From an uncultured Desulfobacteraceae bacterium (GTDB lineage Bacteria > Desulfobacterota > DSM-4660 > Desulfatiglandales > HGW-15), in NCBI GenBank assembly GCA_964520425.1, contig CAZFMX010000001.1:48764-112763 (forward strand): a DNA stretch of 64,000 nucleotides, given 5' to 3'. The notes under the pieces are model-generated. The model did not search any database, was not told the origin of the DNA, and worked only from the letters and a program-made list of their open reading frames with translations. The position numbers and the translations under genes were made by a program. Below, piece after piece: positions 11,250-61,802 of this stretch (position 1 is its first letter; the number at the start of each line of letters is the position of its first letter).

Positions 11250-11313
11250 TTGAAACATTCACAGAACACATTACCCGCTGTATATCAAGATTATTATTCA
11301 AGGGAGAAATTTG

Positions 11314-15037: not shown

Positions 15038-15553
15038 CTAACAAGCCCAGTCATAAAGGGCTATATTATAAGAATCTCTTATGTTTGGATAAACCTTCGA
15101 GACTGCGTTCAAGATCAGCTCAACGTCAATTTCTTGAGGTGTTTTTTCAAGTTCCTTTACAACCTTGTCAGCATCTGTCTTTTCCATGGCATGTTGAATC
15201 AACTCAAAGCTGAGTCGCGCCTGGAGAAGCTTTATGCCCGCTGTTTCCGTGTTGTCACATTCTCTTACATGATTGGCTTGTGCCATCTTATTAACGAAGG
15301 ACTCCACGAAAAGTTTGTCCATCGCATTCACAATTCTCTTATCCAATGCCTGGCTAGCCTCTTCCGCAATTTCCGAAAAAACGTCCTGATAAACCTCTTC
15401 CGACAGTATATCTGATTTTGGCAAAGCCTCCTGACCTATGGTTTTGTCTTCCGCAAGAAGTCCTTCTCCAAAGTTGGTATCCTGGGCCATTCCCGGGCCT
15501 GCAATACCGGCAACCAGTACCAAAATCCCTAAAATCATCGTTAACTTTTTCAT
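15038..15553 (-). CDS. secreted hypothetical protein
   Basis: Signal peptide MKKLTMILGILVLVAGIAGPGMA, then an acidic helical protein. No family recognised. Confidence 0.5.
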   Translation of the reverse strand: MKKLTMILGILVLVAGIAGPGMAQDTNFGEGLLAEDKTIGQEALPKSDILSEEVYQDVFSEIAEEASQALDKRIVNAMDKLFVESFVNKMAQANHVRECDNTETAGIKLLQARLSFELIQHAMEKTDADKVVKELEKTPQEIDVELILNAVSKVYPNIRDSYNIALYDWAC

Positions 15554-15953
15554 GACTTCACCTCGATAGTTATATTTTTTGATTTGCCCTTTTTATACAG
15601 CAAAATCTATGCCACATTGTGGTACTATAATCTAACCCTTTGAATTCATATGGAATATTGTTTCCAGCTCTTTGTGCCTCTCATTCTTAAATCAATTGGA
15701 CTACCAGCTGATGAGTAAAAACGATCCAGTTAACCTTGAGAAACACGTCCAGGAGGATCGAAATTACCCACCTCAGAGTTTACGTGGCACCTTTGAACTA
15801 TAGCGATTTCAATCTGCTCAATCCATACAGATATATTACATGGTATTTTGATTGAATATACAGGATTCACCTTATTGCAATCAACCTCCTCTCCAGCTCA
15901 ATATAATAGAAAATTCATAAGTCCTATAACCATCCATATGGGAGGGACATTTT

Positions 15954-46978: not shown

Positions 46979-47091
46979 GGGCAAGGTTTACGGGACACGG
47001 TGTAAGGTACAAGGCGTATGGCGCGGGGCGCAAGGAATAAAATCCAGGTATTCTGTACCTTCAGCATTCAGTCTTTAGCCTTCCGCCTTCC

Positions 47092-47838
47092 TCACTCAAC
47101 TGTCTCCATGGCCGCGAATTTGGGTTCGTGAAGCGGAATCAGGATGTCGGTCATCCCTTTGATCTTGATCATGATGTCATAGGCCTCATAGGGATTGACA
47201 CAGGTGCCCGGGGGAATGACTTCCATCTCCATAGCCGTGATCTGCTTTGGGGGATAGAAATTTTCCATGATCACACAAAAACCGGTAATGGCGGCTTTAC
47301 CCTTTTCGGTCTCCACCAGGACAGTAAGTCCTCCCGGCGTGTGGGCCGGGGTATGGATCACTTCAACGCCCGGGACAATCTCTGTGTTCCCTATGAGGGA
47401 TTTGATCTGGCCCCTTTCTTCCACCTCTTCGATGTAGTCCTCCAAATAACGAATATCCAGAGGATGGGGATTATGGATCTGCTCAAGTTCCTTTTCATGG
47501 ACATAAATCGTCGCGTTTTCACACTTGTAGTCATTTTCGCAGTGGTCGTTGTGGAGATGGGTATGAATCACTATGTCAATATCCTTTGGTGAAAGACCCC
47601 ACCGCCTTAGCCCCTCCTCAAAGGTATAGATTTTTCCTCCAATGTCTTTTTCCCTCTCCTCGGACTGAATTGGACTCATCTCTCCGGTGTCCACTAGAAT
47701 TTTCTGATCACCCCCTTCCAGATACCAGGAGTAGATGGGGATGGTGTATGATTCACCATAACCGTATTGATAGGTCATCATACCTTTATCAAAGACCTTT
47801 GTGCCCATCACAATGGGATGAATTCTGAACAATGCCAT
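47092..47838 (-). CDS. MBL-fold metallo-hydrolase (AHL-lactonase-like)
   Basis: HTHLHNDHCEN (HxHxDH motif) and a later HTPAHTPGG. Confidence 0.8.
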   Translation of the reverse strand: MALFRIHPIVMGTKVFDKGMMTYQYGYGESYTIPIYSWYLEGGDQKILVDTGEMSPIQSEEREKDIGGKIYTFEEGLRRWGLSPKDIDIVIHTHLHNDHCENDYKCENATIYVHEKELEQIHNPHPLDIRYLEDYIEEVEERGQIKSLIGNTEIVPGVEVIHTPAHTPGGLTVLVETEKGKAAITGFCVIMENFYPPKQITAMEMEVIPPGTCVNPYEAYDIMIKIKGMTDILIPLHEPKFAAMETVE

Positions 47839-48160
47839 GATCTGAGGTCTCTTTGTGCGAGGTTCAGGGGTTTGGGTTGGGAAACGCGATATCTATGAAC
47901 AAGGTTAACATATTCTTGTTAAATCTATAACCCGTTATCAGATTTTTTTGGTTTTTTCTGTTGGAAGAAGCCTGAGCATTTTCTGGAGGCCTCCTTTTCT
48001 TTGGGTCGGTCTCCATTATTTTTCATTAGGTTCGTCCATCCATAGCCTGTCCTCCGCAGAGCTTATATGGATTGCGGGCTGCGGAGGATGGATCGGAAAG
48101 TAACTGATTTGGGTAATTCAGTCATAGATCCCGTCCATTGTGGCCACCTGGAGTTTCAAT

Positions 48161-48355
48161 TTATCTTACTTGGAAACCGGACTCAGTGAACAAAATGGTC
48201 CCAATGAGAACCAGACTCACTCCAATGGCCATGGATGCAGGACAAGCCCAAGCGCCGGAGACAATCGTTCCCAGGGAGAAGAGTGTGAAAAAGTAATTCT
48301 TAAAGACAGAATTTCTGCTAGTTGCCTTTTTTGTCGATGTATAGATGCTTTTCAT
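48161..48355 (-). CDS. small two-TM membrane protein
   Basis: 64 aa from MKSIY. GGAGG lies 5 nt upstream of that ATG. Divergent from the pspA region. Confidence 0.4.
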   Translation of the reverse strand: MKSIYTSTKKATSRNSVFKNYFFTLFSLGTIVSGAWACPASMAIGVSLVLIGTILFTESGFQVR

Positions 48356-48900
48356 TTTTTCCTCCATTTGCTCATTGTTGTGTCATTCCATCTTTCTTGT
48401 TTGCGGTTAGGTTGAATCATTGGCTCTGTTATCCTGTTTGGAGGTTGAAGTATTCAACCTTATTTACTTGTCCTTTAGATGAGAGGTTACAGGTTATTCG
48501 TTTCTCTCCAGTATATATTTGACTTCATGAAATAGCATGAAGTGTGCCAAAAACTATTTTTCCTGAATAATCAACATGTTGATGGCAATCGGGAAATGGA
48601 TGGAGAAAAAAGAGATGGCAAAGAGAGGCCATGTCTGATGAAAAAACACTAATTAGTGGCGAAATTGACCATACGCCGAAGAGGGGGCGTGTGAGTGTTG
48701 AACACTCGAAAAAAGAAAGCGGTTCGGTGGATTAATAGTCGACTATCAGAATAGGGTTATGTCGACAGATGCGAAAATGGCAAAAAACGCCAGTGATTGG
48801 TTTTTTTTGCCAAATGAGGGTCTTTCTTGCTATATGCGGCTTTTTTAAACAAAGCGTCTAACATGCTGTCTTTACGGCATTGTTTTGATAATTGGATGAG

Positions 48901-48916
48901 TGGCACGATTCCTGCC
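48901..48916 (+). promoter_or_regulatory. sigma-54 promoter of pspA copy 1
   Basis: TGGCACGATTCCTGCC with correct GG/GC spacing, about 40 nt upstream of ATG 48955. E. coli pspA is also sigma-54 dependent. Confidence 0.8.
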
Positions 48917-48954
48917 TTTAATCTTGGCAAATAGGGAATAGAAGGAGGTCAGCT

Positions 48955-49638
48955 ATGGGAATCTTTACACGGTTTCGTGACATCGTAAGTGCAAATATCA
49001 ATTCCATGCTGGATAAGGCAGAAGACCCGGAGAAGATGCTTAAAATGATGATTCGTGAAATGGAGGACACTCTAGTTGAGATCAAATCGGCATGCGCCGG
49101 TGTGATGGCGGCCGGGAAGAGGATTGAACGTGAACTGGAGGGAACCCAGTCTCGTATAGACTACTGGAATGGGAAGGCGACTCTTGCCGTGAGTAAAGGC
49201 CGAGACGATCTGGCTCGGGACGCACTTATTGAAAAGAGACGATACACGGAAAAAGCGGAAAGCCTTCATAGGGAACTCAAAGAACATCAGGTTCTGGTGG
49301 CGCAGTATCAAGATGATATGGTCCAACTGGAGCAGAAACTGGGTGGGGTACGTGAAAAGCAGCGCACCCTCGTCCAGCGCCATATATATGCCCGACGTCA
49401 AAGACAGGCCCAGGAAGAAATCCGGAGAATCGATAATTCCGAGGCCCTTTTCAAATTTGAAGAGTACGAAAACCGCATCGAGAGAATGGAGGCGGAGGCT
49501 GATCTGGTGAATTTCGGTAGAAAAGAGACCATTGAACAGGAGCTGGACGCCCTCATTGTGGATGAGGATATTGAAAATGAACTACAAAATATCAAATCCT
49601 CTCTCTCAAAGGACTCACAACAAACGACTGAATCGTAG
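48955..49638 (+). CDS. pspA: phage shock protein A (PspA/IM30 family), copy 1
   Basis: MGIFTRFRDIVSANINSMLDKAEDPEKMLKMMIREMEDTLVEIK is the canonical PspA N-terminus. Coiled coil throughout. Confidence 0.95.
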   Translation: MGIFTRFRDIVSANINSMLDKAEDPEKMLKMMIREMEDTLVEIKSACAGVMAAGKRIERELEGTQSRIDYWNGKATLAVSKGRDDLARDALIEKRRYTEKAESLHRELKEHQVLVAQYQDDMVQLEQKLGGVREKQRTLVQRHIYARRQRQAQEEIRRIDNSEALFKFEEYENRIERMEAEADLVNFGRKETIEQELDALIVDEDIENELQNIKSSLSKDSQQTTES

Positions 49639-49657
49639 TATAGAGAGGAGAAACATC

Positions 49658-50044
49658 ATGAGACGGTTTCACAATATCTGTTATGATCGAGGACTTTATC
49701 GATCCAGAAAAGGGATCATAATGGGGGTTTGCAGGGGTATTGGGGATTACTTCGATTTTTCTGTCTTCTGGATTCGGGTCATCCTGATTATTCTGTTCTT
49801 GATCAGCGGATTCTGGCCCGTAGTTGTCCTCTACTTCGTGGCTGGTTCTATCATGAAACCTGAACCTGTGATACGTCCCCGACAACATTATGAGGAGGAG
49901 TTTTGTGATGGCTATGCCCATACAAGAAGACCTGACTCTGATTACATAAAGAGACGCCAAAAGACACTTGAACGGCGAATACGTAATCTGGAAAGCACCG
50001 TGACATCAAAAGAGTACGACTGGGATCAGCGGTTGAGGGCATAA
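49658..50044 (+). CDS. pspC: envelope stress response membrane protein PspC, copy 1
   Basis: LYRSRKGIIMGVCRGIGDYFDFSVFWIRVILIILFL (PspC domain plus TM helix) and the C-terminal LERRIRNLESTVTSKEYDW, as in E. coli PspC. GAGAGGAG RBS. Confidence 0.9.
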   Translation: MRRFHNICYDRGLYRSRKGIIMGVCRGIGDYFDFSVFWIRVILIILFLISGFWPVVVLYFVAGSIMKPEPVIRPRQHYEEEFCDGYAHTRRPDSDYIKRRQKTLERRIRNLESTVTSKEYDWDQRLRA

Positions 50045-50201
50045 TCTGACGAGAATACATTGAAGCTCCCTGCAGCAAGCTGCAGGGAATCTCCCAAATG
50101 TAAGGAAGTATTTATTGTAATTCGCTCGCTAACCCCGCAGCCAAGCTACGGGAAATGCGCTCGCTGTGCATTTTCAAGAAAGCAATAACCTGTCTCATAT
50201 G

Positions 50202-50229
50202 AAATCGCGCTACCCGCGCGATTTTCTTT
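50202..50229 (+). terminator. rho-independent terminator after pspA-pspC copy 1
   Basis: AAATCGCGC-TACCC-GCGCGATTT forms a 9 bp stem followed by TCTTT. A further T-run follows nearby. Confidence 0.65.
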
Positions 50230-50242
50230 ACCAATTTTTTCT

Positions 50243-50270
50243 GGCAACCCTTTTGGGTGAGTCAGCGTCT
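50243..50270 (+). promoter_or_regulatory. ECF-type promoter candidate upstream of the ECF sigma gene
   Basis: GGCAAC-N17-CGTCT (AAC ends at 50248, CGTC starts at 50266), fitting the common ECF AAC-N16/17-CGT architecture. It lies 46 nt upstream of the start at 50316. Confidence 0.45.
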
Positions 50271-50315
50271 CTATAATATATCACTCAGAAAAGAACCTGA
50301 CGAACAGCCCTGAAG

Positions 50316-50894
50316 TTGAACTCACAAAATGAAAAAGTAGGTGTCACGACTTTCAACGACTCAAATCGCAAGAAGTCCCTCTTTGACTTAATTAGGTGTT
50401 GTCAGGATGGTGACACGAAGGCCATGGAAGAAATATACAGAGATTACAAATCCTCTCTCTTCAACCTAACTTATCGTTATACAAGAGATTTATCTTCAGC
50501 CGAGGATCTCCTTCAGGACATTTTCATAAAAATCTTCACACATATCCGTAAACTCCGTTCTCCGGAAGCATTTAATGCATGGGTTTACAGGACCGCTATT
50601 AATGCATGTATCAGCTTCACCCGCAGGTCTGGGAGGCGAAAGCATATTCCCCTCAATGAGATAGACAAGCCTGATAAAGCTGAAGAAAATAATACCCATA
50701 TCAAGCTGGATATGGAAAAAGCAGTAAGTACCCTGCCGCCTAAAGAGAAGGCCGTGTTTCTGCTTCACGATGTTCAGGGCTTCACCCACGGTGAGATAGC
50801 GCAGGTCATGAAATGGTCGGAAGGCACATCAAAATCTCAACTCTTTAGAGCGAGGATGAGGATAAGGGATCATCTAAAGGAGAAAAGAAAATGA
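50316..50894 (+). CDS. ECF-type RNA polymerase sigma-70 family factor
   Basis: Region 2 (DLIRCCQDGDTKAMEEIYRDYKSSLFNL...AEDLLQDIFIKIF) and region 4 (LPPKEKAVFLLHDVQGFTHGEIAQVMKWSEGTSKSQLFRAR). TTG at 50316 is the only start that keeps region 2 intact. Confidence 0.85.
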   Translation: MNSQNEKVGVTTFNDSNRKKSLFDLIRCCQDGDTKAMEEIYRDYKSSLFNLTYRYTRDLSSAEDLLQDIFIKIFTHIRKLRSPEAFNAWVYRTAINACISFTRRSGRRKHIPLNEIDKPDKAEENNTHIKLDMEKAVSTLPPKEKAVFLLHDVQGFTHGEIAQVMKWSEGTSKSQLFRARMRIRDHLKEKRK

Positions 50895-51559
50895 GATGCG
50901 CAAAGGCGCAAAGGTATATAAGTGATCACACCGACAAGCTCCTAAGTAGAGAACAGACTCAAGCCCTGGAACGGCATATGAAGGAATGCCCGGCGTGTAA
51001 GGAGCTTCTTGATGAAATGCAGATGATTGCGGGAGAGGCCAAGAACATGAAGTCTGTTCTGCCATCTGATAGCCTGTGGCTAAGCATTGAAGGTCAAATA
51101 CACAGGAGTGGCCGGAAAAGCAGAAGCTGGCCGATTGGAATAGGACAGTTTTTCCGGTTCTCTTTGTATTCCAGAGAGTTGGCCTTTTCAGGGAGTGGCC
51201 TTTTAGCCGGCCTGGTTTTGATGACTCTTTTCTACTACGGTATCCCTTTTATTCAAAATGTTAGGAGTATTCCGGATCAGGTGGCATCGGACCAGTTCGA
51301 AGAAGTGGATCGCCACTACCAAATCGCGATAGCGGCGTTGAATCAGGCGATATCAGAACAAGATGTGGAACTCAGCCCGGAGCTTGCAGCGGTATTTGAA
51401 GAGAATCTAGAGATTATTGATGAGGCGATTCAATCTTTCCGGACAGCAATGAACGAATATCCTGAAGACCAAGAGGTCAATGAATATCTTTTGATTTGCT
51501 ACAAGAAGAAGCTTGAACTCTTGGGGGAAATGAAAGACTTGATGATGCGGTCTGGATAA
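50891..51559 (+). CDS. zf-HC2 anti-sigma factor (single TM)
   Basis: HMKECPACKELL (H-x3-C-x2-C), a central TM segment, and an ATGA overlap with the sigma gene. Confidence 0.8.
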   Translation: MRCAKAQRYISDHTDKLLSREQTQALERHMKECPACKELLDEMQMIAGEAKNMKSVLPSDSLWLSIEGQIHRSGRKSRSWPIGIGQFFRFSLYSRELAFSGSGLLAGLVLMTLFYYGIPFIQNVRSIPDQVASDQFEEVDRHYQIAIAALNQAISEQDVELSPELAAVFEENLEIIDEAIQSFRTAMNEYPEDQEVNEYLLICYKKKLELLGEMKDLMMRSG

Positions 51560-51673
51560 GACCCGTTTTCAGCTGAAGTCAGGCCGAAGGCGTGATTTCC
51601 TTTCGAAATTTGAAAATGCGAAGCGGAAATCCAGCTTGCTGGGCTGCAGGGATCTTCAAATAGAGGACGATTA

Positions 51674-52600
51674 ATGAAAAGATCAAAACGTGACATAGCA
51701 CTGCTGACCATTCTTAGTATCGTGATTTGTTTTCCCTCTCTTGGATTCGCGATGGCAGAAGAGAGGATTGTCGAAACCTATCCTTTGGAGAGCACAGGCA
51801 AGGTGTATCTGGAAAACATATCCGGTGACATCACAGTGAGTAGCTGGGATAAAAACGAAATTGAGATCACGGCGATCAAAAAAGGTCGAAGGGAGAGAGA
51901 TCTTGATGACGCCACTATTCATATTCGTCAAATCGACGGTAATATCCGGATCATTACAAGGCACGACAGAGAATTCAGTCTGTTCCGATCAGGCTCTGTA
52001 TCCATTATTTATGACATCGTTGTCCCTGCCAAAGCGTCGGTGAGGGTGAAAAGCATAAGCGGTGATGTTGAAGTACGAAAGATAGGCGGCCTTCTAAATG
52101 TAGAGACTGTCAGTGGTGAGATACGGGTAAGACTTGCCGAGAGTAACGTGCGATGCAAAAGCACAAGCGGTGATATCGATATGGAATACATTCACGGAGA
52201 TGCTGAGTTAGAAAGCGTATCCGGAGAAATATCTATACAGGAGATTGAGGGCTCCGTAGAAGCAGGAACCGTCAGTGGAGACATTGAGCTGGAGGCATTT
52301 TCTTATTCGGAAGAAATAGAGGTGAGTTCCACCAGCGGGGATGTAAAGTTACGAGGAGAGTTGAGCCCCGGAGGCATCTATAGACTCGATTTATTCAGCG
52401 GAGATACAAAAGTGGTTATACCGTCCGACTCAGACTTTGAGTTTTCAGCAAAAACGTTTAGTGGTTCTATAGAGTCTGACTTTGAGCTTAAGCTGTCAGG
52501 GAGATTCAACCCGAAAAAAATCCGAGGGACTGTCGGCAAAGGCGGGGCCAGCCTTGCCATTTCTTCATTCAGTGGAAATATACGCATTATGAAACGGTAA
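51674..52600 (+). CDS. DUF4097 (toast-rack) beta-repeat protein 1, secreted
   Basis: Signal peptide, then many repeats of the SGDI/SGEI-x-V type (ISGDVEVRKIGG, VSGEIRVRLAE, TSGDIDMEY, VSGEISIQE, VSGDIELE). Confidence 0.8.
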   Translation: MKRSKRDIALLTILSIVICFPSLGFAMAEERIVETYPLESTGKVYLENISGDITVSSWDKNEIEITAIKKGRRERDLDDATIHIRQIDGNIRIITRHDREFSLFRSGSVSIIYDIVVPAKASVRVKSISGDVEVRKIGGLLNVETVSGEIRVRLAESNVRCKSTSGDIDMEYIHGDAELESVSGEISIQEIEGSVEAGTVSGDIELEAFSYSEEIEVSSTSGDVKLRGELSPGGIYRLDLFSGDTKVVIPSDSDFEFSAKTFSGSIESDFELKLSGRFNPKKIRGTVGKGGASLAISSFSGNIRIMKR

Positions 52601-52712
52601 AGCCCTGAGTTTAGTGATGCGTTTACAACAGAGTGTTGTAATGTAGAGACTGGCTATAAGCTGGAAAAAGAATATAGAGACTAAAACATTTTTATCAGCG
52701 GAGGGTGTTGTT

Positions 52713-53084
52713 ATGTATAGCGTGAGACGTGTGTGTGTATGGGTTATGATAATGAGTCTGTGCCTTATTATTAGCGGGTGTTTGATTTCTACGCGACAAT
52801 ATACGAATCAGACATCTCCGGGACGCGAATTATCAAAGAGTCAAATAAAGAAGATCGAGCCGGGAGTAACGACGAAAGAGTGGCTGTTGCAGACATTCGG
52901 AATGCCGACAAGGCAAAGGACCTTTGATAATGGTGAGGAAACATGGGAATATGAGAGAAGTTACAGAACAGAGTCTGAAAGCCATGTATTCTTCATTATC
53001 AACACAGAAACTGTCACCAGGACAAGAGAGACATTGATCATTGACATAAAGGACGGCATTGTCCAGGACTACGTGTTTGAATGA
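52713..53084 (+). CDS. BamE/SmpA_OmlA-like lipoprotein
   Basis: Lipobox LIISGC, and KIEPGVTTKEWLLQTFGMPT...GEETWEY typical of SmpA_OmlA. Confidence 0.65.
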   Translation: MYSVRRVCVWVMIMSLCLIISGCLISTRQYTNQTSPGRELSKSQIKKIEPGVTTKEWLLQTFGMPTRQRTFDNGEETWEYERSYRTESESHVFFIINTETVTRTRETLIIDIKDGIVQDYVFE

Positions 53085-53160
53085 TGGTAAAAAGCCCCTT
53101 TTTTCAGAGATGGGCAAGGCTCGGAACTGGTTCCGGCAACAACCTCTAAAAAGGAGCATC

Positions 53161-53973
53161 ATGATGAAATGTAAACCCTGTTTTATTGCTGCGGTTCTGT
53201 GCGTCCTTTGGGCCGCCTGGACACTGACTGGCTATTCATGGGCTTATTCGGAAGAAAGCCAGTATTTTGAAGAGACCTATCCCGTATCAGGGAGGGGGGC
53301 GCGAGTCAGTCTCGAGAACGTCAACGGAGACGTTCGCATTGAGGTGTGGGATCAGGCAGAGGTTCGGGTGCAGGCAGAAAAATTCGCCAGTTCCCAGGAA
53401 TTGCTGGATGACTTAGAGATCAAGATCATCGCTAGCCAAGACTCTGTCCGTATTGACACCCATTCCCCTGATCATCGTTTCTTCTTTGGTTGGCTTTCCT
53501 CCGGCAGAAACGGGCACTATAGAGTGGAATACACTTTGACCGTGCCGCGTGACGCCGAGCTGGATTCCATTGATCTCGTCAACGGTGATCTTGTTGTCAT
53601 CGGGGTTCAAGGTGGGATGCAGGCTGAGTTGGTCAACGGGGATATCATCGCCAAGGATATAGGCGGAGACCTGCGCCTATCCACAGTCAACGGCTCTATC
53701 AGTCCGGAGTTCGAGGACATGGAGAATGTCGAGCGTATCGAGTTGGAATCGGTAAACGGAGAAATCAGACTCATTTTACCATCGGGGGCGAGTGCCTCGG
53801 TCCGCGCCGAGACGCTCAACGGCTCCCTCCGAAATGACTTCGGGCTCGAGGTCCATAAGCACGAATACGTGGGCGCTGACATGTGCGGCGAGATCGGTGG
53901 TGCTGACGTTGACGTCAGAATCGAGACCGTCAACGGTGGCGTTGAGATAAGCCTGAGTGACAAGGCCAAGTAA
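53161..53973 (+). CDS. DUF4097 (toast-rack) beta-repeat protein 2, secreted
   Basis: Signal peptide and VNGD/VNGS/VNGE repeats (LENVNGDVRIEV, LVNGDLVVIG, LVNGDIIAKD, TVNGSISPE, SVNGEIRLIL, TLNGSLRND, TVNGGVEISL). AAAGGAG RBS precedes ATG 53161. Confidence 0.8.
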   Translation: MMKCKPCFIAAVLCVLWAAWTLTGYSWAYSEESQYFEETYPVSGRGARVSLENVNGDVRIEVWDQAEVRVQAEKFASSQELLDDLEIKIIASQDSVRIDTHSPDHRFFFGWLSSGRNGHYRVEYTLTVPRDAELDSIDLVNGDLVVIGVQGGMQAELVNGDIIAKDIGGDLRLSTVNGSISPEFEDMENVERIELESVNGEIRLILPSGASASVRAETLNGSLRNDFGLEVHKHEYVGADMCGEIGGADVDVRIETVNGGVEISLSDKAK

Positions 53974-54354
53974 GGGGCCAGACAGAGCCTATTGTCTTCG
54001 GATTGTACCTTTTCCCTCCTTTGAGTTATCGGCAGCCTGATTTTCTTCTGCACTGTGAATCTTCAGTGAAAAATGTTCGAAAACGAACAAAATAACCTTA
54101 AAAACGGACAACCCTCAGTTGGGAGATCAAGTTAACTTATTGAAATAAAAAGAATTAAAGCCACGGCACGCTTATTGCTGATATGAAATGACATGGCGTT
54201 TTCATATCGGTTTCATTTTGAAATCTCTTCATTGGCCAAATAGGGCACTTGTTAGTTTCTTTCGCCAGATATGGGCTTTTTAACCAAATCTCGTAATCCT
54301 GGTGAATATATGTAACATGCTGATTTGACAGTAGTTCTTGGACTATATGATCAA

Positions 54355-54370
54355 TGGCACGATTCCTGCG
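54355..54370 (+). promoter_or_regulatory. sigma-54 promoter of pspA copy 2
   Basis: TGGCACGATTCCTGCG, identical to copy 1 over 15 nt, about 38 nt upstream of ATG 54408. Confidence 0.8.
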
Positions 54371-54407
54371 ATTGTATATGGCAAACAGAGAACAAAGGAG
54401 GCCAGCT

Positions 54408-55094
54408 ATGGGAGTCTTTACACGGTTTCGTGACATTGTGAGTTCAAACATCAATGACATACTGGATAAGGCAGAAGACCCGGTTAAAATGCTCAAGCTT
54501 ATGATTCGTGAAATGGAAGATACCCTTGTGGAGATCAAGTCAGACTGTGCCAGTGACATGGCGACCGGCAAAAAAATTGAGCGTGAGTTGCTAGATGCCC
54601 AGTCTCGCGCCGGCTTTTGGGAAAAGAGGGCAGCGGTTGCCGTGAGAAAAGGAAGGGATGATCTGGCTCGGGACGCGCTTGTTGAAAAGAAACGGTACAA
54701 GGAAAAGGCGGAAGTCCTTAAGGGGCAACTTAGAAAACATCAGGTCCTGGTGGTGCAGTATCAAGATGATATGGTCCAAATGGAGCACAAACTGAGTGCC
54801 GCCCGTGAAAAGCAGCGCAATCTCGCCCAGCGCCGTATCCAGGCAAAATGTCAAAGACAGGCCTGGGAGGAGATTCGGATAATCGAAAACTCAGAGGCAC
54901 TCTATAAGTTTGAAGAATTTGAAAATCGCATTGAGAGAATGGAGGCGGAAGCAGGCCTAGTGAATTACGGCAAAGAAGTGATCATTGAGCAGGAATTGGA
55001 CGCCATGATCGTGGACGAGGATATTGAAAGCGAGTTGCATCATATCAAGTCCTCTCTTCCCAAGGATTCACAACAAACAACTCAAGTCGGATGA
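54408..55094 (+). CDS. pspA: phage shock protein A (PspA/IM30 family), copy 2
   Basis: MGVFTRFRDIVSSNINDILDKAEDPVKMLKLMIREMEDTLVEIK. AAAGGAGG RBS. The ORF-track start at 54354 is judged too early. Confidence 0.95.
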   Translation: MGVFTRFRDIVSSNINDILDKAEDPVKMLKLMIREMEDTLVEIKSDCASDMATGKKIERELLDAQSRAGFWEKRAAVAVRKGRDDLARDALVEKKRYKEKAEVLKGQLRKHQVLVVQYQDDMVQMEHKLSAAREKQRNLAQRRIQAKCQRQAWEEIRIIENSEALYKFEEFENRIERMEAEAGLVNYGKEVIIEQELDAMIVDEDIESELHHIKSSLPKDSQQTTQVG

Positions 55095-55105
55095 GGAGAA
55101 ACATC

Positions 55106-55492
55106 ATGAGACAATTTCACAATATGTGTTATGACCGGGGCCTTTATCGATCCAGAAGCGGGATCATCATGGGAGTTTGCAGGGGAGTTGGAGAATATCT
55201 CGATTTCTCTGTCTTCTGGATTCGGGCCATCCTGATTGTTCTGTTCCTGATCAGCGGATTCTGGCCCGTGGTCGTCCTCTACTTCCTGACCGCTATCCTG
55301 ATGAAATCTGAACCCGTAATCCGTCCCCACCAACATTATGAGGAGGGATTTTGTACTACCTATACACAGTCCAGAAGACCCTCGTCGGATCACATAAGAA
55401 GACGTCAACAGACTCTTGAGCGGAGGCTACATAATCTGGAGAGCATTGTGACATCAAAGGAATACGACTGGGAAGAGCGGTTGAGAACTTAA
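55106..55492 (+). CDS. pspC: envelope stress response membrane protein PspC, copy 2
   Basis: LYRSRSGIIMGVCRGVGEYLDFSVFWIRAILIVLFL and LERRLHNLESIVTSKEYDW. GAGGAG RBS. Confidence 0.9.
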   Translation: MRQFHNMCYDRGLYRSRSGIIMGVCRGVGEYLDFSVFWIRAILIVLFLISGFWPVVVLYFLTAILMKSEPVIRPHQHYEEGFCTTYTQSRRPSSDHIRRRQQTLERRLHNLESIVTSKEYDWEERLRT

Positions 55493-55635
55493 TTGCAGGA
55501 GAACATCGCAATATCATTCTTTTGTAACCTTTTCGCAAAGATAGAGTTTTATAGGGGGAATAAGCAGTAATGAACCAGCGAATTCATAACGAAAACCTTC
55601 AGAAGATAACGAAGACCATGAAAGGAGACTGAGTG

Positions 55636-56436
55636 ATGAATAGAAAAGGATGGACCATATTCTTTGTGAGTATGTTTATACTCTATGCAGCGGCATCTTC
55701 TTTCGCCTCGACGGCAACAAAGGACTTTGAGAAGGTCTATGATTTCAGTCCAGGCGGGGATGTTATTGTGAGAGCCGTGAACGGCGGAATCGAAGTCTCC
55801 TCATGGAGTCAAGATAAAGTAGAGATAGTATCTGAAGTAAAGGTGAGAGCCGGAAATCGCCGAGAGGCGGAGGATCTATTAGAGGAAGTGGAAATCGTCA
55901 TAGACTATGATTCAGACAGGATTCATGTCGAAGCAGATTACCCAAAACGCTTCGGCAGAAATGGCTTTTTCAATTGGGCATTTGGCTCCAACGCAGGCGT
56001 ATGGGTGCGTTATTGGATCAAGGTGCCAGAAAAGACGAATATAGATCTGAAATCAGTCAATGGAGGCATAGGGGCGGAAAACGTAGAAGGAAGGGCTGAG
56101 CTAAGGACGACAAATGGGGGCATTGAGGGCTCTGAGATGAAAGGAACCGTTTCTGTTCAAACCACAAACGGTTCTGTTCGTATGAGAGTCGATTCCTTTT
56201 CAGATAGCGATGAAATTACCATACGGACGGTCAATGGCAGCGTTCGGCTGGCGTTGCCTTCAGATGTGAGTGCCGACCTGGAAGCCAGCACGGTGAATGG
56301 ATCGATTCGTACGGATTTCCCTTTAACCGTGCAGGGCAGACTCAGTAAGCGACATCTCGATGGAAAGATCAAGGAAGGAGGAGGCCGCGTCACTCTTGGC
56401 ACAGTAAACGGAAGCGTGACGATTTCAGAAAGATAG
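55636..56436 (+). CDS. DUF4097 (toast-rack) beta-repeat protein 3, secreted
   Basis: Signal peptide and VNGG/TNGS/VNGS repeats (AVNGGIEVSS, SVNGGIGAEN, TTNGGIEGSE, TTNGSVRMRV, TVNGSVRLAL, TVNGSIRTDF, TVNGSVTISE). AAAGGAG RBS. Confidence 0.8.
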   Translation: MNRKGWTIFFVSMFILYAAASSFASTATKDFEKVYDFSPGGDVIVRAVNGGIEVSSWSQDKVEIVSEVKVRAGNRREAEDLLEEVEIVIDYDSDRIHVEADYPKRFGRNGFFNWAFGSNAGVWVRYWIKVPEKTNIDLKSVNGGIGAENVEGRAELRTTNGGIEGSEMKGTVSVQTTNGSVRMRVDSFSDSDEITIRTVNGSVRLALPSDVSADLEASTVNGSIRTDFPLTVQGRLSKRHLDGKIKEGGGRVTLGTVNGSVTISER

Positions 56437-56477
56437 AGAACAACGGCTTTTTATGTGGAGAGATGGAGGAGCAAGAT

Positions 56478-57077
56478 ATGAAACAAAAGGGATTACTTGT
56501 GATACTCGTGCCGATGTTGGCTTTTTTGGCTTTGTTTGTGAGTTCAGTTAGCGCTGGCGAACATCGGGACTGCCCCTTTTCCGGGAGGGATCTGAATAAA
56601 TGGCACGCGGATGGTGTCCAATATGAAATCGATGATCATTCGCTCTTCCTCTCACACCACGGTCTTCATGGCGACAGAGTGGAAATCACCTGGGATGGTC
56701 AACTCTATATCAACGATGAATTTGTAAAACTTGACAGCGATCAACAGAGACTCGTCGCGACCTACTATGCCTTAACAATGGGCATTGTGAGTCAGGCCAA
56801 GGATTTGGGGCATGAAGGGGCAAGAGTCGGTATGGAGGGTGCCGGCCTGGGCTTGAAGGCGGTCGGAGGTGTATTCAAAATGATGTTCACTTCATACGAT
56901 GGAGATGATCTTGATCAGGATATGGAATGGGAGGCCGGGAAATTGGAGAGAAAGGCCGAGCGTCTTGAGGAAAAAGCAGAAGAGATTGAAGATCTGGCCG
57001 AAGATCTGGAACGGGTTGCCGAAAGGATGAATGAGAAGATTCCGGAACTTAGAGAATTAGGCTGGTTTTACCGATAG
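56478..57077 (+). CDS. secreted hypothetical protein with acidic coiled-coil C-terminus
   Basis: Signal peptide MKQKGLLVILVPMLAFLALFVSSVSA. C-terminus KLERKAERLEEKAEEIEDLAEDLERVAERMNE. GGAGGAG RBS. Confidence 0.55.
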   Translation: MKQKGLLVILVPMLAFLALFVSSVSAGEHRDCPFSGRDLNKWHADGVQYEIDDHSLFLSHHGLHGDRVEITWDGQLYINDEFVKLDSDQQRLVATYYALTMGIVSQAKDLGHEGARVGMEGAGLGLKAVGGVFKMMFTSYDGDDLDQDMEWEAGKLERKAERLEEKAEEIEDLAEDLERVAERMNEKIPELRELGWFYR

Positions 57078-57104
57078 GAATAGGGAAGAAAAGGGGAGAG
57101 TAAT

Positions 57105-57130
57105 GAAACAACTCTCGGAGTTATTCGTCT
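57105..57130 (+). promoter_or_regulatory. ECF-type promoter candidate upstream of the ABC efflux operon
   Basis: GAAAC-N16-CGTCT, with the same CGTCT -10 element as at 50266-50270. It lies 56 nt upstream of ATG 57186. Confidence 0.4.
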
Positions 57131-57185
57131 GTATTTATAGCTGCAAAGAGAGTCTGAGAATATTTAAAGGGGATGGAGGTAGGAA

Positions 57186-58295
57186 ATGGCCAAGATATTA
57201 AAGATACTCCTGGTTCTCGTGATCCTGGCTGCAACGGTCGTGGGCGGGTATGCCTGGGTTCAGAACCGGCAGCCGGACGATCGGGGGTTCACCTTTGTAG
57301 ATGTCGCCAGGGGCGACATCACCGAAAAAGCTGTGGCCGTGGGTCAGATCGAACCCCGCCAAAAGTTCCACATCAAGTCGAAGATATCTGGAATCGTCAG
57401 ACGGTGCCCGGTTGATGTGGGTGACCGGGTGAAAGCCGGGGATCCCATCATTGAAATCAGTCCGGACCCCACCCCTACGGAATTGTTGGAGGCTGAACGT
57501 CAGGTTGAAAAGGCCTTATCCGCGCACAATCGCGCCAAGGCGGACTGGGAACGCTCCCAAGACCTTGTGAAGCAGGGCGTTTTAACGAGAGACAGATTGG
57601 ATGCCGATCATGAGGCCTATGATCTAACCCGGATCGAGCTGGATCGTGCCCGGGACCATCTACAGCTCATCCAGGAGGGGCGGGTTGCCGGCCGCGGGGA
57701 AAAAATGGAGACCGTCATTCGCGCTCCTGCAGCAGGAATCCTCCTCGAGCGGCTTGTCGATCCCGGCGATCCGGTTGTTCCCCTCACGAGCTACCAGGCG
57801 GGTACCGAATTAGCTACCTTGGCTGATATGAGCGACCTGATCTTCAAGGGCACGGTGGATGAGATTGACGTGGGCAAGCTGGATATGGGTCTGCCCGTTC
57901 GTCTAAAAATCGGTGCCCTGCCTGATCAACCCATCACCGGCAAATTGACCCGCATTGCCCCGCAGGCGATTGAACGTGATAATGCCAAGCTCTTCGAGGT
58001 GGAGATCGAGTTGGACTCTTTCGAAGGCGTGCTGCTGCGTGCGGGTTATTCAGCCAATGCTGATGTGGTCATCCGGGAGAAGAAAAACATTCTTCTCATC
58101 CCCGAGCGCCTGATCATATTTGAGGATGATGGTGCCCAAACATTCGTAGAGCTGCCAGGTGAGATCCCGGAAGCGGAGCCCCGAAAAGTGACCGTTAAAA
58201 TCGGTCTCTCCGATGGCCTGAACACCGAAGTGATCTCAGGGGTCAAAGAAGGGGACAAACTGGTGCAGCGGCCTCCCAGAGAAATCGAGGGATAG
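57186..58295 (+). CDS. HlyD/MacA-family periplasmic adaptor
   Basis: N-terminal TM anchor, lipoyl/barrel-sandwich motifs (VDVGDRVKAGDPIIEI...IRAPAAGIL), and a coiled-coil hairpin. Confidence 0.85.
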   Translation: MAKILKILLVLVILAATVVGGYAWVQNRQPDDRGFTFVDVARGDITEKAVAVGQIEPRQKFHIKSKISGIVRRCPVDVGDRVKAGDPIIEISPDPTPTELLEAERQVEKALSAHNRAKADWERSQDLVKQGVLTRDRLDADHEAYDLTRIELDRARDHLQLIQEGRVAGRGEKMETVIRAPAAGILLERLVDPGDPVVPLTSYQAGTELATLADMSDLIFKGTVDEIDVGKLDMGLPVRLKIGALPDQPITGKLTRIAPQAIERDNAKLFEVEIELDSFEGVLLRAGYSANADVVIREKKNILLIPERLIIFEDDGAQTFVELPGEIPEAEPRKVTVKIGLSDGLNTEVISGVKEGDKLVQRPPREIEG

Positions 58296-58307
58296 GATTC
58301 ATCTGTC

Positions 58308-59531
58308 ATGATCAACACCATTCGCCAACTCGTACGTGACACACGCAGCCAGAAACTGCGCACTTTGCTGACTCTCTTTGGCATGATCTGGGGGACTACT
58401 GCGGTGAGTCTATTACTGGCGTTTGGCGATGGCTTACATAAGCAGACAGTAAAAAACAACAGGGGCATAGGTAATAATGTGATTATTGGCTGGCCCTCAC
58501 GAACTTCCATGCCCTTTGAAGGATTAGCCAAGGGCCGTTACATACTCATGGATGATGACGATATCCAGCTTCTCCGGCAGAAGGCTTATGGGCTTAAAGC
58601 CATTTCCGTGGAGTATCAGGCCGGGCTTAAACTCCAACGCGCTGCCAAAGTACTTACCGTGTCTGTATCAGGAGTGGAACCTGACTTCGGAGAAATACGC
58701 AATCTGATTCCAGCCGCAGGTGGTCGCTTCATCAATCACCTGGACCAGGAAAAGAGAAGGAGGGTGGCCTTTCTGGGAAATGAACTGGCTGGACAGATCT
58801 TTGGTGAGGAGTTTCCTATAGGGCAGTCTATTCAACTCAATGGATTCCCCTTTCTTGTCATAGGTGTGCTCAACGAAAAGATTCAGAATTCCAATTACGC
58901 AGGACCGGATAACGGGAGAGTTTTTATCCCTGCCTCCACGCTCAAAGTAATGACCGGACTGAGGTTTATCAACAACTTTGTCTTTTCGGCCAGTGATGTG
59001 ACCAAGACCGAAGCATTGATTAATGATGTGCGGCGGATCATGGCCCTTCAACACAGGTTTGATCCCATGGACGATCAAGCGATTGCTCTCTGGGATACCA
59101 CTGAGACATTTCGATTTCTCCATACCTTTATGCTTGCCTTCAAGATCTTCCTTGGAGTGGTCGGATGTTTGACCCTTGTTGTCGGGGGAATCGGTGTTTC
59201 CAATATCATGAATGTGGTGGTTGAAGAGAGGACCCGCGAAATCGGAATCAAAATGGCCCTGGGCGCGAAACCTCGCCTCATCCTTGGACAGTTTGTGTTT
59301 GAAACACTGGCCCTGACCATCGTGGGAGGAATCCTGGGTATATTGATTACCCTGGGAATCTGCGCGATTTTCCCTGCGTTCAATTTGACCGATTATGTGG
59401 GTGATCCTGCTATCTCTCCCGGCGCGGCTGCCGCCACCGCAGTGATGCTCGGTTTGATCGGTCTTGTTTCAGGTTATTTCCCCGCACGCACCGCTTCCAA
59501 CCTGGATCCGGTGGTGGCAATGAAGATGTGA
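58308..59531 (+). CDS. MacB-type (FtsX/MacB_PCD) ABC transporter permease 1
   Basis: Four-TM FtsX topology with a large periplasmic domain. N-terminus RSQKLRTLLTLFGMIWGT. C-terminus GYFPARTASNLDPVVAMK. Confidence 0.85.
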   Translation: MINTIRQLVRDTRSQKLRTLLTLFGMIWGTTAVSLLLAFGDGLHKQTVKNNRGIGNNVIIGWPSRTSMPFEGLAKGRYILMDDDDIQLLRQKAYGLKAISVEYQAGLKLQRAAKVLTVSVSGVEPDFGEIRNLIPAAGGRFINHLDQEKRRRVAFLGNELAGQIFGEEFPIGQSIQLNGFPFLVIGVLNEKIQNSNYAGPDNGRVFIPASTLKVMTGLRFINNFVFSASDVTKTEALINDVRRIMALQHRFDPMDDQAIALWDTTETFRFLHTFMLAFKIFLGVVGCLTLVVGGIGVSNIMNVVVEERTREIGIKMALGAKPRLILGQFVFETLALTIVGGILGILITLGICAIFPAFNLTDYVGDPAISPGAAAATAVMLGLIGLVSGYFPARTASNLDPVVAMKM

Positions 59532-59541
59532 GGTAAGAGAA

Positions 59542-60801
59542 ATGCGTAAACCGAGGCTAGGTCTGGTATTTCAACTCTTTCTGCGTGCGAGTCGTGTGCA
59601 GAAAAAGAGGGCGATCCTCACCGTGGCCTCCATCGCGTGGGGTTCACTCTCTCTGCTCTTGCTTCTGGCTTTTGGTGAAGGGCTCAAAATATCGTTAACC
59701 ACCGCCATGTACGGAATGGGCGAAGATCTGGCCATCTTTTGGCCCGGCACCACCAGCCTGATCTGGCAAGGACTGCCCGCGGGTCGGCCGATTCGGCCTC
59801 GCATAGAGGACATTGCCCTTCTAAGAGAGCGCGTTCCCAATCTGGAAGATGTGGCGGGTGAGATAAAAAGATGGGGTGTAGTCGTCAACCATGGTGAAAC
59901 GTCCACAACAGCTCAGGTCAAAGGTGTCACCCATGGTTTTGGTGAGATACGCAACCACATTCCTGCGCCTGGGGGGCGATTCCTCGATCCTCTGGACGAA
60001 CGACTGAGGCGTCGAGTGGCCTTTCTGGGAGACAAACTCACGGAGAAGCTTTTTTATGGAAAGGATCCAATAGGTAAGCAGATCCTTCTGGATAAAGTTC
60101 CCTATACGGTCATCGGGGTCATGATGCCCAAGATGATGATGGGGAACTATGGTGGAATGGACGAGGATCAAATCTCCATACCCATTACCACATTCAAGGC
60201 CCATTTCGGCCAGGACAGACTGAGTAATATCATAGTCAAACCGAACCAACCCCAGAGTATGGGATTTGTACTTGAAGAACTGCACAAAACCCTGGGGGCC
60301 AAATATGGATTTGATCCGAAGGACAAACGGGTATTCGGTATCTGGAATACGGTAGAGACATTCCAGGTCACCCGCGATATTTTGATGGGGATTCAGCTCT
60401 TTCTGGGTATTATTGGTGGTCTCACCCTGATAGTCGGCGGTGTGGGAGTGGCCAACATTATGTACGCGGTGGTCAAAGAACGCACCAAGGAGATCGGGGT
60501 TAAAATGGCACTGGGCGCGCGTAGGCGTTGGATCACAGGCCCTATTGTTCTCGAATCTTTGCTCTATTCTCTTTTGGGAGGAGCAGCCGGGCTGATCATG
60601 GCCGTGGTTGTTATTATTCTTCTGGAACAGTTGCCCACAGAAGGAAACGATGCCTTGACCATGATTGGCACTCCGACGCTATCTCTATCCATCGGTCTGG
60701 TGTCCGCCTCCATCCTGGGTTTTATCGGACTTATGGCAGGGTATTTTCCCGCGAGGCGTGCCGCGTCCATTAATCCGGCGGAGACGCTTCGTTACGAATG
60801 A
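59542..60801 (+). CDS. MacB-type (FtsX/MacB_PCD) ABC transporter permease 2
   Basis: Paralog of the previous gene (KKRAILTVASIAWGS ... GYFPARRAASINPAETLR). Confidence 0.85.
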   Translation: MRKPRLGLVFQLFLRASRVQKKRAILTVASIAWGSLSLLLLLAFGEGLKISLTTAMYGMGEDLAIFWPGTTSLIWQGLPAGRPIRPRIEDIALLRERVPNLEDVAGEIKRWGVVVNHGETSTTAQVKGVTHGFGEIRNHIPAPGGRFLDPLDERLRRRVAFLGDKLTEKLFYGKDPIGKQILLDKVPYTVIGVMMPKMMMGNYGGMDEDQISIPITTFKAHFGQDRLSNIIVKPNQPQSMGFVLEELHKTLGAKYGFDPKDKRVFGIWNTVETFQVTRDILMGIQLFLGIIGGLTLIVGGVGVANIMYAVVKERTKEIGVKMALGARRRWITGPIVLESLLYSLLGGAAGLIMAVVVIILLEQLPTEGNDALTMIGTPTLSLSIGLVSASILGFIGLMAGYFPARRAASINPAETLRYE

Positions 60802-60808
60802 GGGAGAT

Positions 60809-61543
60809 ATGTTTTTAGACGGGATTTTTAATTCAAAGAAGCATCAATCACCTGTTGAGAACGGTAGGGTGATCGACCTAAAAGGTCTGACCAAGGTCTA
60901 CGATACCGGCAAGATCAAGGTGGAGGCCCTCAAGGGTATTGACCTGGAGGTTCGGGATGGGGATATGGTGGCCATAACCGGTCCCTCCGGATCCGGCAAG
61001 AGCACCCTGATGAACCTCATCGGGTGTCTCGACACGCCCACATCAGGGAGCTACTTCCTACGGGGGGAATCGGTCTCAGGTTTGAGCCGGGAAGAGCTGG
61101 CAGGTATCCGAAACCGTCGGGTGGGCTTCATCTTCCAGAACTTTAACCTGCTTCCGCAGATTTCTGCTTTTGAAAATGTTGAGATGCCTCTTCTCTTCAG
61201 CGGCCTGCCCCGTCGTAAGCGTCGCGAAAGGGTCCATGAGCTTTTTGATCGGGTGGGTCTTGCTGATCGTATGGATCATAAGCCCACTGAACTCTCAGGG
61301 GGACAGATGCAGCGGGTGGCCACGGCCCGTGCCCTGGCCATGGACCCCGACATTATCCTGGCGGACGAGCCGACCGGCAACCTTGACACCAGTTCAGGAA
61401 GCGATATCATGGATCTCTTTCAGGAATTGTGGGAACAGGGTCGTACGGTCCTGGTGATCACACATGATCCGGCCTTGGCCCGTCGTGCCCCACGTCAGGT
61501 GGAGATCCGGGACGGGCTGATCACACGGGATAGTCGAAATTAA
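60809..61543 (+). CDS. ABC transporter ATP-binding protein (MacB/LolD-type NBD)
   Basis: Walker [10 protein letters not shown], signature [10 protein letters not shown], Walker [22 protein letters not shown] precedes ATG 60809. Confidence 0.92.
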
Positions 61544-61802
61544 CCCTAACGTTGCATAAAAAACATGACAAGGATTTGTCAAAAGCAAGGTGTACTTGAA
61601 TAAGAGCATCCACACGAATATGGGCGCAAAATGAGCGATAATCGATTGTCGATCAAATGAAAGATCACATTCGGCTTGGATTGTGATATAAAGAAAGCTG
61701 AAGAAGTCTGATCAAGGGAGTCATGACGAGTCGTGGCTGAAAGTGGAGAATTCGTAATCAGTGAATGATCGGATCAGTACGAGAGGAGGGGAGGAACCCA
61801 AA

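Follow-up and report, generated by a model that had tools for sequence, protein, structure and literature searches.

What kind of regulatory system is it in which two copies of pspA and pspC, each behind a sigma-54 promoter, flank a separate extracytoplasmic function (ECF) sigma factor gene, and what switches it on? The question is raised by a gene island in a 64-kb stretch of DNA (the window, in what follows) from an uncultured Desulfobacteraceae-type bacterium. An earlier interpretation made without database searches (the sequence-only reading) had seen in it a blend of the proteobacterial phage shock protein (Psp) system and the Firmicute Lia system, the activator of the sigma-54 promoters being a puzzle. 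By employing open reading frame (ORF) lists, Pfam and NCBIfam models, motif positions and comparison with related metagenomic loci, labelled L001-L019, we found the island to be a lineage-specific rearrangement of well-known parts of the envelope-stress type. We regard it as probable, with room left for doubt, that it houses two independent stress circuits of known types together with an efflux pump, and that the Psp circuit is run by an unlinked PspF.

Two psp modules and a candidate activator

The ORF list and Pfam placed the two pspA-pspC copies on either side of a separate ECF sigma/anti-sigma unit (Table 1). As read from the sequence alone, the copies share an identical promoter core, TGGCACGATTCCTGC at 48901 and 54355, and their products, at 73% (PspA1/PspA2) and 75% (PspC1/PspC2) identity, fall within the range of about 70-80% given there. 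The ECF sigma factor, zf-HC2 anti-sigma factor, three DUF4097 (toast-rack) proteins, lipoprotein and secreted coiled-coil protein of that reading were likewise all recovered with Pfam. The DNA homology of the modules begins ~170 bp before the ATG and ends exactly with the stop codon of pspC. PspA1 scored 243.7 with the PspA equivalog model TIGR02977, just above the cutoff of 242.95, and PspA2 scored 208.3, below it; the PspC model TIGR02978 (cutoff 104) gave 100.8 and 93.8 for the two copies, both just under, and PspC keeps the C-terminal LE..V TS.. tail. No pspB was found in the window by tblastn with two PspB sequences, and the gap between pspA1 and pspC1 is only 19 bp.

The general sigma-54 pattern, TGGCAY-N6-TGC, matched six times in the window, with 0.9 matches expected, and three of the six are situated in the island, all intergenic and all correctly oriented. 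Two of these belong to the psp modules, and the third, TGGCACACTTCATGC, precedes a small gene divergent from pspA1. Dyads of the form TGG-N9-CCA, putative PspF-type upstream activating sequences (UAS), occur upstream of all three (offsets are counted from the first T of TGGCAC). A dyad at -122/-123 was found in six out of six genomes for the small ORF, in the pspA1 promoters of six genomes and in the pspA2 promoters of four, and a second one is found at -102/-103 in the pspA promoters. Since the small-ORF promoter is non-homologous to the pspA promoters, chance is unlikely to have placed a perfect (6/6) dyad there at this very offset (roughly 10^-3, a rough estimate with a 3-position tolerance).

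Similar distances are found where a pspF-type gene is at hand. In the distant relatives L005, L006/L007 and L008 (PspA 56-63% identical), a divergent gene for a receiver-less bacterial enhancer-binding protein (bEBP) is followed by pspA-pspB-pspC, while in L010, a short contig, a divergent bEBP gene adjoins pspA. The L005 protein passes the PspF equivalog model TIGR02974 (461, cutoff 443.6), and the bEBPs of the other relatives are homologous to it, several having been annotated as psp operon activator at source. Dyads are located at -119 and -99 in L005 and L006 and at -122 and -102 in L010, and L008, also beside a pspF-type gene, has a single dyad at -130; about the same dyad distance is shared by three of the four relatives with a pspF-type gene next to pspA. 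Because of this match in distance, the activator is less of a puzzle than the sequence-only reading had it, an unlinked PspF being the obvious candidate. Judged from these promoters, the most likely activator is an ordinary PspF whose gene lies outside the window, and all three sigma-54 promoters would form one PspF-type regulon. Regulation at a distance has a precedent in Escherichia coli, where PspF also drives the unlinked pspG (PMC9239133), and in Desulfovibrio vulgaris the activator DVU2989 has been assigned to the operon DVU2988-2986 under the heading 'phage shock response' (Kazakov et al. 2015, PMC4641369). PspF homologs number in the thousands, many being named 'psp operon transcriptional activator' and many coming from Desulfosarcinaceae or Deltaproteobacteria. 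Two of them, P0062 and P0096 ('Deltaproteobacteria bacterium'), were considered as the pspF of this genome and set aside, as they derive from other assemblies.

A metagenome scan with the extended promoter pattern returned five loci only, all from the same clade, and no further regulon member. At L019 1-1867, the extended promoter core is divergent from a gene for a BatA/BatB-like VWA-TPR membrane protein, and the psp side runs off the contig. A second palindrome, CCACTAATTAGTGG, was considered as a shared operator and was not used, its spacing being unlike that of a similar palindrome in L006. Other sigma-54 matches in the window are found at 15600-15614 on the minus strand, just upstream of the minus-strand ORF 15038-15553, and at 2877-2891, also on the minus strand.

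The small ORF behind the third promoter has a conserved GGAGG ribosome-binding site (RBS) and a leader of ~170 nt between the sigma-54 core and the ORF. It is a real gene, as it is conserved in relatives with a ratio of non-synonymous to synonymous substitution rates (dN/dS) of 0.22-0.29 across three genomes. Its homologs form 14 clusters, all of one narrow clade, and no matches were obtained in Pfam or NCBIfam, including the PspB, PspD and PspG families, so that it was not identified as any of these three; PspB is also countered by the layout of the relatives' PspB proteins, i.e. an N-terminal transmembrane (TM) segment plus a coiled coil. We propose the predicted membrane protein as an extra member of the putative sigma-54/PspF regulon. 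A structured RNA in the conserved leader was considered and rejected (Alifold -4 kcal/mol, zero compensatory pairs, Rfam empty). In L011 (7056-7400, minus strand) the sigma-54 promoter and leader are kept and the ORF is gone, the leader abutting a radical-SAM gene and era, which may reflect either a role of the promoter and leader themselves or a recent deletion.

The genes between the two modules are organized differently. Both the terminator after pspC1, kept with stem changes in L003 and L004, and the ECF-type promoter following it were found where the sequence-only reading had put them. The promoter region, TTCTGGCAACCCTTTTGGGTGAGTCAGCGTCTC, hardly varies across five genomes, unlike the intergenic DNA on either side, and its motif predicts autoregulation. 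The sigma factor met only the ECF superfamily cutoff in NCBIfam. In the anti-sigma factor, the residues of the zinc motif (C3, H29-x3-C33-x2-C36) are invariant in 22 homologs, and a single TM segment (~96-122) is followed by a ~100-aa helical periplasmic domain. Its AlphaFold2 (AF2) model has a mean predicted local distance difference test (pLDDT) of 54 overall and ~75 for the three-helix C-terminal domain, which we take with moderate confidence to be a three-helix bundle; no significant Foldseek matches were obtained with this model, itself weak. The anti-sigma family is narrow, with 31 clusters, the full-length members being 74-94% identical and one member 54%. This last relative, L013, is a short contig with the order ECF-antisigma-toast-rack 1, a non-psp gene upstream and no psp gene seen. 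As toast-rack 1 adjoins the anti-sigma gene even there, the three genes constitute the conserved core of the ECF unit. Only one ECF-type motif occurs inside the cluster proper, and none was found upstream of any psp gene. The operon ends with a terminator-like hairpin that is weak by itself, and its sequence is conserved in L003, L011 and L014. By these signals, the ECF/anti-sigma/toast-rack triad appears self-contained, bounded by its promoter and by terminators. A sigma-54-like sequence directly 5' of the hairpin, CGGCACGCTTATTGC (54164-54178), is also conserved in L003, L011 and L014 and may be a mere part of the conserved terminator region.

Where at least three transcription units had been counted before, all the signals stand and the number rises to at least four, because of the terminator-like hairpin after toast-rack 2. 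These are the small ORF (sigma-54 promoter, divergent from pspA1), pspA1-pspC1 (sigma-54 promoter, terminated), ecf-antisigma-toast-rack 1-lipoprotein-toast-rack 2 (ECF-type promoter, terminated) and pspA2-pspC2-toast-rack 3-DUF2884 (sigma-54 promoter), of which the last may continue into the pump genes. No terminator was found between pspC2 and toast-rack 3, where the fold of the gap gave z = +0.9, nor does one separate these genes from DUF2884 and the genes following it. The third sigma-54 promoter with its small gene, the absence of pspB, the second terminator-like hairpin and the linked pump had all been overlooked by the sequence-only reading.

Table 1. Genes and regulatory features of the island and the adjoining pump operon, in order of position in the window.
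Feature	Position	Strand	Remarks
64-aa membrane protein	48161-48355	-	polar N-terminus, hydrophobic C-terminal half, ~2 helices
Small-ORF sigma-54 core, TGGCACACTTCATGC	48535-48549	-	conserved in L003, L004, L011, L015, L018
TGG-N9-CCA dyad, putative PspF-type UAS	48657-48671		122 bp upstream of small-ORF core
Tandem dyads TGGCAAAAAACGCCA, TGGTTTTTTTTGCCA, putative PspF UAS	48778-48812		-123 and -103 from pspA1 core
pspA1-pspC1 sigma-54 core, TGGCACGATTCCTGC	48901-48915	+	identical in L003, L004, L011, L015, L018
pspA1	48955-49638	+	PF04012, E = 2.9e-44
pspC1	49658-50044	+	PF04024; no pspB between pspA1 and pspC1
Intrinsic terminator after pspC1	50201-50232	+	hairpin 50201-50226, -13.9 kcal/mol, z = -4.9
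ECF-type promoter, GCAAC-N17-CGTC	50244-50269	+	identical in L003, L004, L011, L014
ECF sigma factor	50316-50894	+	Sigma70_r2, Sigma70_r4_2, Sigma70_ECF
zf-HC2 anti-sigma factor	50891-51559	+	start overlaps sigma stop codon
Toast-rack (DUF4097) protein 1	51674-52600	+	signal peptide; PF13349, E = 1e-23
Lipoprotein, BamE/SmpA_OmlA-like (borderline)	52713-53084	+	PF04355, 23.6 (cutoff 23.2); ISGC lipobox
Toast-rack protein 2	53161-53973	+	signal peptide; PF13349
Terminator-like hairpin with U-rich tail, end of ECF operon	54180-54220	+	weak alone, z = -1.8
pspA2 dyads	54233-54286		-122, -102, -83; 5/6, 5/6 and 6/6 matches to TGG-N9-CCA
pspA2-unit sigma-54 core, TGGCACGATTCCTGC	54355-54369	+	conserved in L003, L011, L014
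pspA2, diverged copy	54408-55094	+	PF04012
pspC2	55106-55492	+	PF04024
Toast-rack protein 3	55633-56436	+	signal peptide; PF13349
Secreted DUF2884 protein	56463-57077	+	C-terminal coiled coil; PF11101, E = 2e-11
Possible second ECF-type promoter, TGAAAC-N16-CGTCT	57104-57130	+	precedes efflux operon
MacAB-TolC-like pump	57186-63170	+	HlyD-family adaptor, two MacB_PCD/FtsX permeases, ABC ATPase, OEP

The analysis shows the gene identities, the motifs and their conserved positions, the insulating terminators, the synteny and the purifying selection, whereas what activates the psp genes, which signals induce the two circuits and how far these communicate is inferred, as follows. By analogy with enterobacteria, PspA1 and/or PspA2 would hold an unlinked receiver-less PspF inactive. 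Inner-membrane damage, sensed with PspC, would draw PspA to PspC and the membrane, and the PspF thereby freed would act on the three sigma-54 promoters via the dyads at -122/-102. PspA oligomers, PspC, the small membrane protein, toast-rack 3 and the DUF2884 protein may then protect or repair the envelope. Independently, periplasmic or outer-membrane stress would inactivate the anti-sigma factor and switch on the ECF operon, perhaps along with the pump.

Several points weigh against this interpretation. No PspF gene has been tied to this genome, and the window is without one. It also lacks pspB, which enterobacterial signalling normally needs together with PspC. The dyad is a low-information motif with six specified bases, and the tight, conserved linkage of ECF and psp genes could mean that the circuits are not independent.

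Conservation in relatives and the probable independence of the circuits

The nearest genomes are metagenome-assembled genomes (MAGs) labelled Deltaproteobacteria or Desulfobacteraceae, and PspA1 and the small ORF are unchanged in the Logan assemblies of SRR14802572 and SRR14802574. When all island proteins were used in tblastn searches, the interleaved architecture was found to recur in at least five related metagenomic lineages, with the number of toast-racks (one to four), the BamE-like gene, pspB and pspA2 varying among them. L003 differs from the window by the lack of toast-rack 2 alone, while L014 has the full set and a fourth toast-rack besides. In L011 the order is pspA1-pspB-pspC1, two toast-racks are present, and the lipoprotein, toast-rack 3 and the small ORF are lacking. 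Both toast-rack 2 and pspA2 are missing from L004 and L018, two independent assemblies. Three partial contigs add the small ORF with its sigma-54 promoter, pspA1-pspC1, ECF sigma and anti-sigma (L015), pspA-pspC directly followed by DUF2884 (L016) and pspA followed by pspB (L017). The possibility of a one-off rearrangement, raised by the sequence-only reading, is thus not borne out on comparative genomics: by the gene orders found, the duplicated arrangement is conserved clade-wide, all syntenic genomes being close relatives.

In L004, the region 9290-9420 contains two microhomology deletions, and L018 has the same architecture. By the first, codons 1-13 of toast-rack 2 have become joined to the pspA2 leader, with the loss of the terminator, dyads and sigma-54 promoter, and by the second, codon 10 of pspA2 has been joined to the start of pspC2. 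Therefore pspC2-toast-rack 3 comes to lie directly behind the ECF operon, so that L004 and L018 would represent a natural rewiring of the second module, as read from their sequence.

That these genomes tolerate pspC2-toast-rack 3 behind the ECF operon without a sigma-54 promoter, and that the interleaved order recurs in all clade members for which sufficient sequence exists (L003, L004, L011, L014 and L018), speaks for a reading in which the ECF/toast-rack and Psp modules are one integrated hybrid device, e.g. with toast-racks or the anti-sigma factor contacting the periplasmic tail of PspC in a joint sensing of periplasm and inner membrane. Additional support comes from Bacillus subtilis, where the toast-rack protein YvlB, encoded together with the PspC homolog YvlC in yvlABCD, has PspA and LiaH as interaction partners (Popp et al. 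2022, PMC9239133), and from Ravi et al. (2024, PMC11237479), according to whom toast-rack domains 'co-migrate' with PspC and PspA in bacteria. However, the units are set apart by a strong terminator and by separate promoter types, with the single ECF-type motif of the cluster proper standing away from the psp genes; the toast-racks have signal peptides while PspA is cytoplasmic; and the ECF-antisigma-toast-rack order of L013, a short contig, comes with a non-psp gene upstream. Moreover, as the syntenic genomes are all close relatives (anti-sigma factor at least 74% identical), the ECF-psp linkage may be inherited rather than selected. We consider such a hybrid unlikely, if the most serious of the alternatives to two independent circuits. 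Quite unlikely, in our estimation, is a two-compartment device in which exported toast-racks and the zinc anti-sigma factor would watch the periplasm and outer membrane, talk to the PspC tail and couple the ECF and PspF outputs, the 64-aa protein being a Psp signalling component in place of PspB. If this were true, toast-racks would act as extracytoplasmic sensors in the Psp response of a Gram-negative bacterium, at odds with the intracellular location predicted in the literature.

The NtrC-type regulator and the second psp copy

A further explanation has the sigma-54 promoters driven by an NtrC-type bEBP of a two-component system, with the Psp proteins as effectors only and no PspA-PspF feedback. 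In agreement with the sequence-only reading, no receiver-less PspF-type bEBP was found in the 64-kb window, and the only GAFTGA protein there, encoded at 9531-10973, has a receiver domain and is situated beside a histidine kinase. This lack of PspF, the missing pspB and the presence of a kinase/receiver-bEBP pair (7861-10973) all count in favor of such control, as do two kinases and a receiver-bEBP located 3 kb upstream of pspA1 in L011. The PAS histidine kinase and NtrC-type response regulator lie within 7861-12576; downstream of them, a sigma-54 promoter close to the consensus, TGGCACACGCCTTGC at 11234, precedes the gene for a 421-aa protein without a Pfam match. The window bEBP thus has its own sigma-54 promoter and target just downstream, and this, the receiver and the partner kinase led to its rejection as the psp activator. 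In addition, it is 48% identical to the L011 protein and not syntenic with it, the dyads are placed as in promoters next to a PspF-type gene, and PspA1 passes the PspA equivalog model. Altogether this makes NtrC-type control very unlikely, and an unlinked PspF remains the preferred activator.

Purifying selection was found on every gene tested, with a dN/dS of 0.2-0.34 (0.2-0.23 for pspC1, the anti-sigma factor and toast-racks 1 and 3). Judged by these ratios, both psp copies appear to be held by selection, the second (pspA2, 0.34) somewhat less strictly than the first (pspA1, 0.22). That the second module is a redundant duplicate heading for loss, in an architecture without functional meaning, is the least likely of the explanations: PspA2 does form a long branch in the window and L003, is 72-73% identical to PspA1, falls below the equivalog cutoff and has the higher dN/dS, its gene is deleted in L004 and L018, and the toast-rack and BamE-like gene content is fluid, but in the window, L003, L011 and L014 its ORF, RBS, promoter core and dyads have all been kept intact, its dN/dS still signifies purifying selection, and DNA identity between the L011 copies is 92% over promoter and pspA (85% over pspC), which suggests gene conversion or a recent re-duplication there.

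Neighboring genes and comparison with known systems

One hydrophobic segment, N-terminal, is present in each exported candidate of the island. Pairwise identities among the three toast-rack proteins are only 24-31%, which marks them as old paralogs. LiaG was the best NCBIfam match of toast-rack 1, and sequence searches of the PDB with toast-rack 1 and the lipoprotein came back empty. Toast-rack 2 is absent in L003, L004 and L018 and present in L011 and L014, while toast-rack 3, missing from L011 and L016, is present twice in L014. The BamE-like label given to the lipoprotein by the sequence-only reading holds by a narrow margin in Pfam (Table 1), the NCBIfam BamE model giving 20.6 against a cutoff of 93; its AF2 model is weak (pLDDT 60), no Foldseek match had E < 0.07, and the gene is absent in L011. 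The spacer between toast-rack 1 and the lipoprotein gene (52620-52660), unusually conserved at ~80%, contains an inverted repeat, TTACAAC-AGAGT-GTTGTAA, that lacks a T-run and may serve in RNA processing or attenuation.

The DUF2884 gene is always 3' of the second psp module in the relatives examined. The pump behind it comprises all four families in order, with the ATPase as a separate polypeptide and two permease genes, and is invariably linked, its synteny being kept in L003, L011 and L014. The ECF-type motif preceding it is the same in L003, has CGCCT as its -10 in L011 and L014 and TTCAAC as its -35 in L014, so that ECF control of the pump is possible but speculative. A search of Rfam with 47000-58000 gave no matches. 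A ~118-bp element with two GC-rich hairpins, resembling miniature inverted-repeat transposable elements (MITE) or repetitive extragenic palindromes (REP), is found at 50060-50177 and is not a functional part of the system. It also occurs at other intergenic sites (L003 13585-13711, reverse; L011 13087-13207), and as the short-read assemblies L001 and L002 break inside it, many copies per genome are suggested.

With the enterobacterial Psp system (pspF divergent from pspABCDE, plus an unlinked pspG) the island shares PspA and PspC of the proteobacterial type, more than one regulon promoter, and sigma-54 promoters with upstream, here putative, enhancer sites; the promoter of the small membrane protein gene resembles the pspG case. 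Unlike in enterobacteria, pspF is not adjacent, pspB, pspD and pspE are absent, pspA-pspC is duplicated with the same promoter, the second unit runs into toast-rack and DUF2884 genes, and the small protein has no detectable similarity to PspG, PspB or PspD. The pspF-pspA-pspB-pspC loci of Desulfosarcinaceae MAGs (L005-L008) and DVU2989/DVU2988-2986 of D. vulgaris (PMC4641369) employ the same protein families, but these canonical deltaproteobacterial loci are single-copy, have pspF and pspB in place and no ECF or toast-rack genes nearby. Within the Desulfobacteraceae, three pspA copies have been described in D. autotrophicum HRM2 and two in D. magnetovallimortis and in ellipsoidal magnetoglobules, which are said to be without PspB and PspC (bioRxiv 10.1101/2022.11.08.515611); a duplicated pspA-pspC with shared sigma-54 promoters around an ECF unit is not described there.

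As to the mixture of Psp and Lia features proposed by the sequence-only reading, the Psp part stands and the Lia part does not, only the toast-rack domain being shared. With no LiaF-type membrane domain, no LiaRS and PspA copies far below the LiaH equivalog model (82.6 and 69.6, cutoff 380), this is not a Lia system (LiaH, LiaI, LiaG, LiaFSR): no LiaI-LiaF-TM domain was found, the LiaF_C matches of the toast-racks were sub-threshold, and no kinase or regulator is present in the cluster. In the Psp network of B. subtilis, a PspA homolog, a PspC-domain protein and DUF4097 proteins likewise co-occur, and an ECF sigma factor takes part in the same stress network; SigW controls pspA and yvlABCD. 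In contrast, the psp genes studied here are predicted to depend on sigma-54 and not on an ECF factor or LiaR, and the toast-racks are predicted to be soluble and exported, not membrane-anchored or cytoplasmic. The DUF4097 domain of LiaG has been described as extracellular (Popp et al. 2022, PMC9239133).

Ravi et al. (2024, PMC11237479) reported toast-racks in operons with a sigma factor, a toast-rack context with ABC ATPase, permease and DUF2884 lipoprotein, and toast-racks in the pspF operons of some spirochaetes and alphaproteobacteria. They also stated that PspA paralogs seldom retain their context, and predicted the toast-rack to be intracellular. Three such contexts (toast-rack/sigma factor, toast-rack/DUF2884/ABC transporter and PspA/PspC/toast-rack) come together in the single island studied here, combined with a duplicated pspAC and with a MacB-type tripartite pump and no GntR regulator. 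In contrast to the published pattern, the toast-racks carry signal peptides and the PspA paralogs keep their promoter and pspC partner.

The partnerships are thus known already, and what is particular is their combination in one locus, i.e. two pspAC modules of the same promoter design around an insulated ECF/toast-rack unit, together with a sigma-54-driven small membrane protein, no pspB, no adjacent pspF and exported toast-racks. Current understanding is not overturned by this, the associations of the components having been catalogued before. The clade does offer a natural series, with two pspAC copies, with and without pspB, with and without pspA2, and with one to four toast-racks, which may be used to ask what role the second PspA/PspC pair and the periplasmic toast-racks play, and whether bacteria other than enterobacteria can do without PspB. 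In the 64-aa membrane protein the regulon has a new candidate member. Lastly, TGG-N9-CCA at -122/-102 is a candidate PspF operator for Desulfobacterota and could be used to predict Psp regulons.

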